64,000 bases of DNA, taken from assembly GCF_044647545.1 (NCBI RefSeq), contig NZ_CP172818.1. One strand, written 5' to 3'. The number at the start of each line of letters is the position of its first letter. Position 1 is the stretch's first letter. The position numbers were made by a program. Source of the stretch: Escherichia coli (lineage in GTDB: Bacteria > Pseudomonadota > Gammaproteobacteria > Enterobacterales > Enterobacteriaceae). Shown in pieces: positions 34,676 to 37,600 of this stretch.

Positions 34676-37600
34676 ATTTGCTTAGCGCAGAGTGAAGATT
34701 AACCTATCTGCCCATTCCCCAAATGTTTAACGCGGCGCTTAACTTCTTCCTGCTTACCAGCGTTAAACGGACGTGCATCCGGGCTACCTAAATATCCGCA
34801 CACGCGGCGAGTTACCGACACACGGGAGGCGTCATGGTTACCACATTTCGGGCAAGTAAAGCCTTTGCTGGTGCACTCGAACTCACCGGTAAAGCCACAC
34901 TCGTAGCACTCATCAATCGGTGTATTGGTGCCGTAATACGGTACATGCTGATAGCTGTAATCCCAGACATCTTCCAGCGCTTTCAGGTTGTGCTGAATGT
35001 TTGGATACTCGCCGTAGCAAATGAAACCACCGTTCGCCAGCGGCGGGTAAGGCGCTTCAAAGTCGATCTTGTCGTACGGGTTAACCTTCTTCTCCACATC
35101 AAGGTGGAAACTGTTGGTGTAGTAACCTTTATCGGTCACGCCCGGCACCACGCCAAACTCAGCAGTATCGAGACGGCAGAAGCGGTCGCACAGGTTTTCA
35201 CTCGGCGTGCTGTAGAGACTGAAACCATAACCCGTTTCTTCTTTCCACTGATCCACTGCCTGACGCAGACGTTCAACAATCGCGATACCTTTCGCGCGGA
35301 GCTGCTCGTTGTCGTAAACATGCTCGCCGCCGAACAGCGCGTTAATGGTTTCGTGGATGCCGATGTAACCCAGCGAAATAGACGCACGACCGTTTTTGAA
35401 GATTTCAGAAACATCATCGTCAGCATTCAGACGCACGCCACAAGCACCTTCCATATAAAGGATCGGGGCCACGCGCGCTTTCACGCCTTCCAGACGAGCG
35501 ATACGGGTCATCAGCGCCTTACGTGCCAGCACCAGACGTTCATCCAGCAGCTTCCAGAAGGTGGCTTCATCGCCTTTTGCTTCCAGAGCAATACGCGGCA
35601 GGTTCAGGCTGATCACGCCGAGGTTGTTACGACCATCGTGGATCTGCTCGCCGTTTTCATTTTCCCACACGCCGAGGAAGCTGCGGCAGCCCATCGGGGT
35701 TTTAAACGAACCGGTGACTTTCACTACCTGATCGTAGTTCAGGATATCCGGATACATGCGCTTGCTTGCGCACTCCAGCGCCAGCTGTTTGATGTCGTAG
35801 TTCGGATCGCCTTTTTTATGGTTCAGACCATCGCGAATCGCAAACACCAGTTTCGGGAACACCGCAGTTTTACGGTTTTTACCGAGACCTGCGATACGGT
35901 TACGCAGGATAGATTCCTGAATCAGGCGCGATTCCCAGCTGGTGCCCAGACCAAAACCAAAAGTTACAAACGGCGTTTGACCGTTGGCGGTATGCAGGGT
36001 GTTTACTTCGTACTCCAGCGACTGGAAGGCATCGTAGCACTCTTTAATGGTACGAGAGTTAGCGTAGCCTTCTGCGTCCGGGATGCTCCACTCTTCTGCG
36101 GTCTTGCGATGTTTGTTGTAGCTGGCGGTGACAAACGGTGCCAGCACTTCATCGATACGGTTAATGGTGGTGCCGCCATAAATATGGCTGGCAACCTGAG
36201 CAATAATCTGCGCAGTTACCGCGGTTGCCGTTGAGATCGACTTCGGCGGTTCAATCTCGGCGTTCCCCATTTTAAAGCCCTGGGTCAGCATGCCTTTCAG
36301 GTCGATCAACATGCAGTTGAACATCGGGAAAAACGGTGAGTAATCGAGATCGTGATAGTGAATATCGCCACGCTCATGTGCCTGCACCACGTCACGCGGC
36401 AGCAGGTGCTGACGTGCATAGTGTTTAGCCACGATCCCGGCCAGCAGGTCGCGCTGGGTTGGAATCACCTTGCTGTCTTTGTTGGCGTTTTCGTTGAGTA
36501 ACGAGGCGTTGGTCTGCTCGACCAGACCACGGATCTCCTGGTTCAGGCGACCGCGTTTTTCACGTTCAATGTCGCGATCGTGACGGTACTCGATGTAAGC
36601 GCGAGCCAGTTGTTTGTATGGACCCGACATCAGCTGGTTTTCAACTGCGGTCTGGATCTCGTTGATATCCACCTGGTTGCGGCCCTGCATCTGCTCGCTG
36701 ACAACCGCGGCAACAGTGGCGCAATAATCGGCATCATCGACTTCCGCTGCTTTAGCTGCACGCAGAATCGCTTCTTTGATGCGCTCTGATTTAAACGGCA
36801 CTTTGCAGCCGTCTCGTTTCATCACATGCGGTGTCATGATCGCTCCATATTTTTAAGAACAGGTTATCCACAGAAATTGGGAAAGGCGTTTTCCGGTTTT
36901 TTCGTTTCGTTTTCCGGTGCTTTCCGCAATCGCCATCCGCTTATCCACAACGCCGCACCTTTTTCGTGGGGAGCTGTAGTAGCAATTATAGTCGATTAAT
37001 ACAACATATTGGGTTGGGACGCATTTTAAAGTCTATATATAGTGCTTTGCATCAAGGATGTTTTAACTTTTTTTGATGTAGCTCAAAGTAAAAAGCAGAG
37101 CGTACGGATGACGGGCGCTACAGCGTTATGTAAATTTTTTAATGAATTTGCTGGTTGAAAAATCAACAAAAACAACATGCTGACAGACAAAACCCCGGAA
37201 TGACCGGCATTACCGGGGCTTAGGGAAGATTTACTTCTGTAACCACCAGACAGCCTCAAAAGGCCGTAAATTCATGGCACAGGGTTGTGGTGAGGCTTCT
37301 TCGTAGTTATGCATCACAAGCTGCCAGTTGCCGCGCATTTGCCCTGGCTGCCAGGGTTGGATCTCACGGCTAAGGTTGGCAATGACCAGCAAGGTTTGCC
37401 CCTTCCATTCACGGCAATAGCACCACAATACAGGGCTGTTTGGCAGCAGATCCTGGTAATTGCCCCATGTCAGGATGGCTTCTTGCTTACGCAGTGCGAT
37501 TAACTTTTGGTAGGTGTAAAACACCGAGGACTCATCGGCCAGCGCGGCTTCTACGTTGATTTGTTGATAGTTATCGCCCAGGCCAATCCACGGTTCGCCA

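Follow-up and report, generated by a model that had tools for sequence, protein, structure and literature searches.

Paired FNR and NrdR sites in the Escherichia coli nrdDG promoter: a coordinate map and phylogenetic footprint

Positions 37001-37086 of the E. coli chromosomal DNA analysed here (a 64-kb stretch, referred to as the window) are best read as the core of the nrdDG promoter, carrying two FNR and two NrdR sites through which FNR activates and NrdR represses transcription; we put the probability of this reading at roughly 0.93. The promoter is a textbook-level case in which an oxygen signal (FNR) is combined with a nucleotide-pool signal (NrdR), and its control by these two proteins is already known in detail, so that our analysis leaves current knowledge unchanged. 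What we add is an exact map of the sites in window coordinates, together with a broad phylogenetic footprint and the confirmation of a call that had been made from the DNA letters alone, hereafter the first-pass annotation. That annotation had proposed anaerobic activation together with dNTP-dependent repression. Expression in an fnr mutant and binding by NrdR support this scheme, except that the effector is dATP together with ATP or ADP rather than dNTPs in general. Our data establish the sequences of the sites, how they are spaced and how well they are conserved; published work shows that both proteins bind and that expression depends on both. The exact start, the exclusion of RNA polymerase and the competition of FNR with NrdR are inferences.

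The nrdDG control region

Positions 37001-37086 are located upstream of nrdD, within the intergenic region that separates it from treC. The 701 bases around them are 100% identical to this intergenic region in several E. coli genomes, and 5425 of 5426 complete genomes contain a match. Open reading frame calls and the RefSeq annotation of the MG1655 locus gave the limits of nrdD listed below and placed the end of the open reading frame corresponding to treC at 37231. To convert coordinates, 4425823 was subtracted from the NC_000913.3 position; NC_000913.2 and NC_000913.3 are offset by 1977, as confirmed by the FNR site at 4460919 in Myers et al. 2013, which maps to window position 37073. Relative to MG1655, the 393-bp intergenic region carries four substitutions (37064, 37066, 37126 and 37179), none of which is inside any site discussed here. 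Those at 37064 and 37066 are located between the two FNR sites, in a spacer whose gene strand reads GCTC in K-12 and GTTA in the window. The K-12 nrdDG promoter, on which Torrents et al. 2007 reportedly did earlier work, is the same locus, and its four sites, -10 hexamer and spacing are identical in the window strain. The features are as follows.

37086..37073, minus strand: FNR site 2 (upstream), TTGAGCTACATCAA = TTGAGctacATCAA, centre 37079.5 (-64.5), 9/10 match to TTGAT-N4-ATCAA
37055..37042, minus strand: FNR site 1 (downstream), TTGATGCAAAGCAC = TTGATgcaaAGCAC, centre 37048.5 (-33.5), 8/10 match to the same repeat
37045..37030, minus strand: NrdR box 1, GCACTATATATAGACT, centre 37037.5, spanning -30..-15 and covering the -35/spacer region
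37028..37023, minus strand: putative -10 hexamer, TAAAAT, -13..-8, positioned from the published FNR site centres
37015, minus strand: deduced transcription start (+1), an A
37014..36999, minus strand: NrdR box 2, ACCCAATATGTTGTAT, centre 37006.5, +2..+17, 31 bp centre to centre from box 1 with a 15-bp linker
34699..36837, minus strand: coding sequence of nrdD, the regulated gene, 712 aa
34539..34075, minus strand: nrdG, downstream of nrdD

Conservation was assessed in 81 sequences, comprising the window and 80 Enterobacterales loci, which were collected from one genome per species by a scan with the first 300 residues of NrdD and which span Escherichia albertii to Yersinia, Serratia, Dickeya, Hafnia and Edwardsiella. 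When the 300 bases preceding the start codon were aligned, the median identity to E. coli was 62%, and the conserved blocks coincided with FNR site 2 (TTG and ATCAA), FNR site 1, NrdR box 1, the sequence TARAAT and NrdR box 2. Every one of these 81 Enterobacterales sequences has the NrdR box pair. The second FNR site occurs only in Enterobacteriaceae.

FNR sites and promoter geometry

The first-pass annotation had placed a single FNR-like motif upstream of an NrdR-box-like palindrome. This motif is present, reading TTGATGTAGCTCAA on the plus strand at 37073-37086, and the same 14-mer is listed by Myers et al. 2013 (PMC3688515, Table S6) at 4460919 (NC_000913.2) as a predicted site under an FNR ChIP-seq peak, with a PatSer score of 15.68. 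The summit of the peak, 4460925 (NC_000913.2), maps to window position ~37079 and is within about one base of the centre of site 2. In an fnr mutant, expression of nrdD was 0.36x and that of nrdG 0.27x (Myers et al. 2013, PMC3688515). The annotation was thus right about the upstream site, but it overlooked a second one at 37055..37042. Both sites have the inverted repeat TTGAT-N4-ATCAA of an FNR operator, and in anoxic SEC-SAXS experiments wild-type FNR occupied both of them on a 54-mer (Illava et al. JBC 2023, PMC10425943) that corresponds, in its K-12 sequence, to window 37090..37037. Matches to the FNR consensus with at most one mismatch are not significantly enriched in the window (five occurrences against 2.8 expected); a pair of FNR-like sites 31 bp apart with no more than three mismatches in total occurs once, at this position, against 0.00 expected. 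Across the 81 aligned upstream regions, the TTG and TCAA positions of site 2 are near-invariant, and in 65 sequences the two FNR sites are exactly 31 bp apart.

With reference to Roca et al. 2008, Illava et al. 2023 (PMC10425943) place the centres of site 1 and site 2 at -33.5 and -64.5 from the transcription start. Counted from the centres in the window, both values yield the same start, which would be the A at 37015. This position is second-hand, in that it derives from the one quoted in PMC10425943 and from internal consistency, namely the 31-bp spacing and a conserved -10 hexamer at the right distance. The published centres fit the geometry of the window exactly, including the -10 hexamer, which is conserved as TARAAT among Enterobacteriaceae; the start is therefore compatible with the positions first proposed for the sites. 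A scan for sigma-70 consensus promoters gave no match on the nrdD strand and no -35 match, as expected of an activator-dependent promoter, and on the opposite strand it gave only a chance-level match, TTGGGA-18-TATAGT. Mapping of the nrdD start and mutation of the FNR sites were reportedly carried out by Boston & Atlung 2003 and Roca et al. 2008. FNR usually activates from -41.5 (class II) or from positions at or beyond about -61.5 (class I). At -33.5 an activating site overlaps the -35 region, which is atypical. Other E. coli promoters with tandem FNR sites (cydA, yfiD and ompW, with two predicted sites each in Table S6 of Myers et al. 2013) resemble nrdDG in having two sites per promoter, but the contribution of a -33.5 site to activation sets nrdDG apart from them.

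Under anoxia, [4Fe-4S]-FNR dimers bind both sites, whose centres at -64.5 and -33.5 are separated by 31 bp; activation needs the near-consensus upstream site, and the weaker downstream site raises expression. It is also conceivable that only the upstream site is a real activator site and that site 1 is a decayed relic, or has been conserved through its overlap with NrdR box 1 and the -35 region. Several observations fit this view of site 1. It has two mismatches in E. coli, one of which is a T to G change in the right half-site, and it falls below the genome-wide PatSer threshold, so that the list of predicted sites in Table S6 of Myers et al. 2013 (PMC3688515) holds a single nrdD site. A centre at -33.5 makes it overlap the -35 region, and for Illava et al. 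2023 (PMC10425943) the mechanism of activation is 'a remaining mystery'. In addition, the more distant Enterobacterales in our alignment (Yersiniaceae, Hafniaceae and Pectobacteriaceae) lack site 1 yet keep the upstream FNR-like site and two near-perfect NrdR boxes. We nevertheless consider it improbable that site 1 has no activating role, because there is strong conservation of its left half, TTGATGCAA, which is not part of the NrdR box, because site 1 is a 9/10 match in most genera and because the SAXS data indicate double FNR occupancy (PMC10425943). Compared with E. coli, most genera in fact combine a better site 1 (TTGATGCAAATCAC) with a weaker site 2 (TTGTTCTGNATCAA). Activation by FNR from two sites therefore remains our preferred reading of this part of the promoter.

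NrdR boxes

The palindrome noted in the first-pass annotation is NrdR box 1. The sequence GCACTATATATAGAC occupies 37045..37031 on the gene strand, and the complete 16-mer reaches 37030; the distance to the upstream FNR motif, given as 30-45 bp, is 42 bp from centre to centre (37079.5 to 37037.5). The annotation also mentioned a weaker second box nearby. This box is present at 37014..36999, with its 10-bp core inside 37001-37086 and its last 2 bp just outside, but it is not marginal: it is a genuine box and belongs to a pair of cores that is kept in 81 of 81 sequences, at a spacing of 31 bp in 73 of them and 32 bp in the other 8. We described the NrdR core by the pattern CWABMKVTWG, which was built only from the four boxes of nrdAB and nrdHIEF (FEBS J 2025 probes), with the nrdDG boxes left out. 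Both nrdDG cores match this pattern, and the two boxes are palindromes of about 16 bp with the C-N8-G core of an NrdR operator. Their spacing is within the range of such operators (31-32 bp, or a linker of 15-16 bp), and they sit at the promoter of a ribonucleotide reductase operon, where they bracket the deduced -10 hexamer and start at a distance of 162-208 bp from the nrdD ATG. Single cores are not significantly enriched in the window (11 occurrences against 6.4 expected); two cores exactly 31 bp apart, centre to centre, occur once, at this position, against 0.03 expected. In the alignment, the flanking C and G of the cores are conserved and the central positions vary. A possible third box at 36991..36983 was rejected, as its C-N7-G core is one base short.

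Binding of NrdR to this DNA has been measured directly. E. coli NrdR bound a 57-bp nrdDG probe with both boxes on it (Rozman Grinberg et al. FEBS J 2025, PMC12176259), and the probe is 100% identical to window 37050..36994. The KD was 160 nM with ATP-dATP and 152 nM with ADP-dATP; no binding was seen with ATP alone, and none to a control promoter (PMC12176259). The 15 bp that the authors give between the nrdDG boxes (PMC12176259) equals the 31-bp centre spacing measured here. The E. coli nrdHIEF and nrdAB operators are similar to that of nrdDG, in that each consists of two palindromic boxes of 16 bp, separated by a 15-bp linker, and has an affinity of about 100-190 nM that depends on dATP plus ATP or ADP. 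The partner regulators differ, being Fur and IscR for nrdHIEF, DnaA and H-NS for nrdAB, and FNR and H-NS for nrdDG, where one of the NrdR boxes has been reported to overlap a site for FNR.

The nrdDG promoter of Salmonella Typhimurium has the same FNR-FNR-NrdR-NrdR order, and its NrdR box 1 likewise overlaps a site for FNR. Mutation of either nrdDG box in Salmonella Typhimurium derepresses the promoter, and the NrdR2-box mutant is derepressed up to the level of an nrdR deletion. The authors of that work give a box spacing of 31-32 bp, note the overlap of box 1 with the FNR site and propose that FNR and NrdR compete. In our alignment, the locus of S. enterica subsp. arizonae matches the window site for site. 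Compared with E. coli, Salmonella has a better match at site 1 (TTGATGCAAATCAC) and a weaker site 2 (TTGTTCTACGTCAA).

We also considered whether the TATATATA-centred palindrome might be mere AT-rich promoter DNA, such as a -10-like or UP-like element or an H-NS target, and not a specific NrdR operator. The single-box core pattern is no rarer in the window than chance would have it, H-NS binding to the nrdDG promoter has been reported (PMC12176259), and the opposite strand carries the chance-level sigma-70 match given above. This explanation is nonetheless very improbable, as NrdR binds the identical 57-mer in a nucleotide-dependent manner and does not bind the control promoter (PMC12176259), the box pair at exactly 31 bp is unique in the window and universally kept, with conserved C and G flanks around variable centres, and the Salmonella box mutants are derepressed. 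That the FNR and NrdR motifs are all chance matches without a regulatory role can be dismissed: single-motif counts are inside the shuffle range, but pair-spacing statistics, the phylogenetic footprint, ChIP-seq and in vitro binding refute it.

Together, these data suggest how the specific NrdR operator could act. The boxes flank the -10 hexamer and the start, at -30..-15 on one side and +2..+17 on the other, so that an NrdR tetramer bound on either side would keep RNA polymerase off the promoter. NrdR on box 1 probably also excludes FNR from site 1, because the two share 4 bp (37045..37042) and lie on the same helical face. With centre spacings along the promoter (31, 11 and 31 bp) that approximate whole turns of the helix, all four sites should lie on the same face of it; for the two FNR dimers, this agrees with the SAXS model of PMC10425943. 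The 11-bp offset between the centres of site 1 and box 1 is found in all 65 sequences that have the FNR pair, and this invariant offset and the 4-bp overlap could make the binding of FNR and NrdR strictly mutually exclusive.

Other features of the nrdD leader and nearby DNA

Directly downstream of NrdR box 2, at 36998..36983 on the minus strand (+18..+33 of the deduced transcript), is a conserved block, TAATC-GnCTAYnAT. In E. coli, its GnCTAYnAT part contains a perfect TATAAT at 36990..36985 (+26..+31), without a usable -35, and the T-A-n-n-A-T conservation across Enterobacteriaceae is a pattern typical of a -10 hexamer. TATAAT might serve as the -10 hexamer in a second promoter of nrdD that is independent of FNR and has its -35 region under NrdR box 2, or it could be a site for another factor. 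We think it rather unlikely that with this GnCTAYnAT block the control region holds one element beyond the published FNR, NrdR and DnaA sites.

The DnaA sites are two perfect boxes, TTATCCACA, at 36864-36872 and 36941-36949 on the plus strand. They are the only two in the 64-kb window, where 0.46 would be expected, and both are inside the nrdD 5' leader, 77 bp apart and in the same orientation. The proximal box belongs to a double box, tTTAAGAACAggTTATCCACAg, which adjoins the ribosome-binding site. DnaA ChIP-seq has shown binding upstream of nrdD (2024, PMC11317965); the authors quote a double box that matches window 36853-36873. Both boxes are strongly conserved in Enterobacteriaceae, and in Yersinia, Serratia, Dickeya, Hafnia and Edwardsiella the distal one (TGTGGATAA on the gene strand) is still present. 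In the loci of the distant families (L071-L081: Edwardsiella, Leminorella, Hafnia, Limnobaculum, Yersinia, Dickeya and Serratia), forward DnaA-like boxes, TTATCCACAnnnCATCCACA, directly abut NrdR box 2 and point towards the conserved reverse box, TGTGGATAA, which lies further downstream, a layout of DnaA boxes that differs from that of E. coli.

The middle of the leader carries a direct repeat, CGTTTTCCGGT(T/G)..TTTC, in two copies 21 bp apart (36887-36903 and 36908-36924, plus strand), in a stretch with little conservation beyond Escherichia. The 181-nt leader folds no better than shuffled sequences (z = -1.2), and we therefore rejected the idea that it holds an RNA element. An Rfam scan of 36600-37400 with E values up to 1 returned only two spurious sub-threshold matches.

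Two further observations concern other parts of the data. Myers et al. 2013 report an FNR ChIP-seq peak at treR/mgtA (NC_000913.2 4465559), which maps to about 41713 in the window; the treR-mgtA intergenic region (41424-41801) contains no FNR-like motif with two or fewer mismatches. Finally, the nrdD upstream region of a strain filed as E. coli, SCPM-O-B-8794 (L003 in our alignment), is 77% identical to the window, compared with 92% for Escherichia albertii, and its FNR site 1 is further decayed (TTAATGCAAAGCAC), which suggests that this strain represents a divergent Escherichia lineage.
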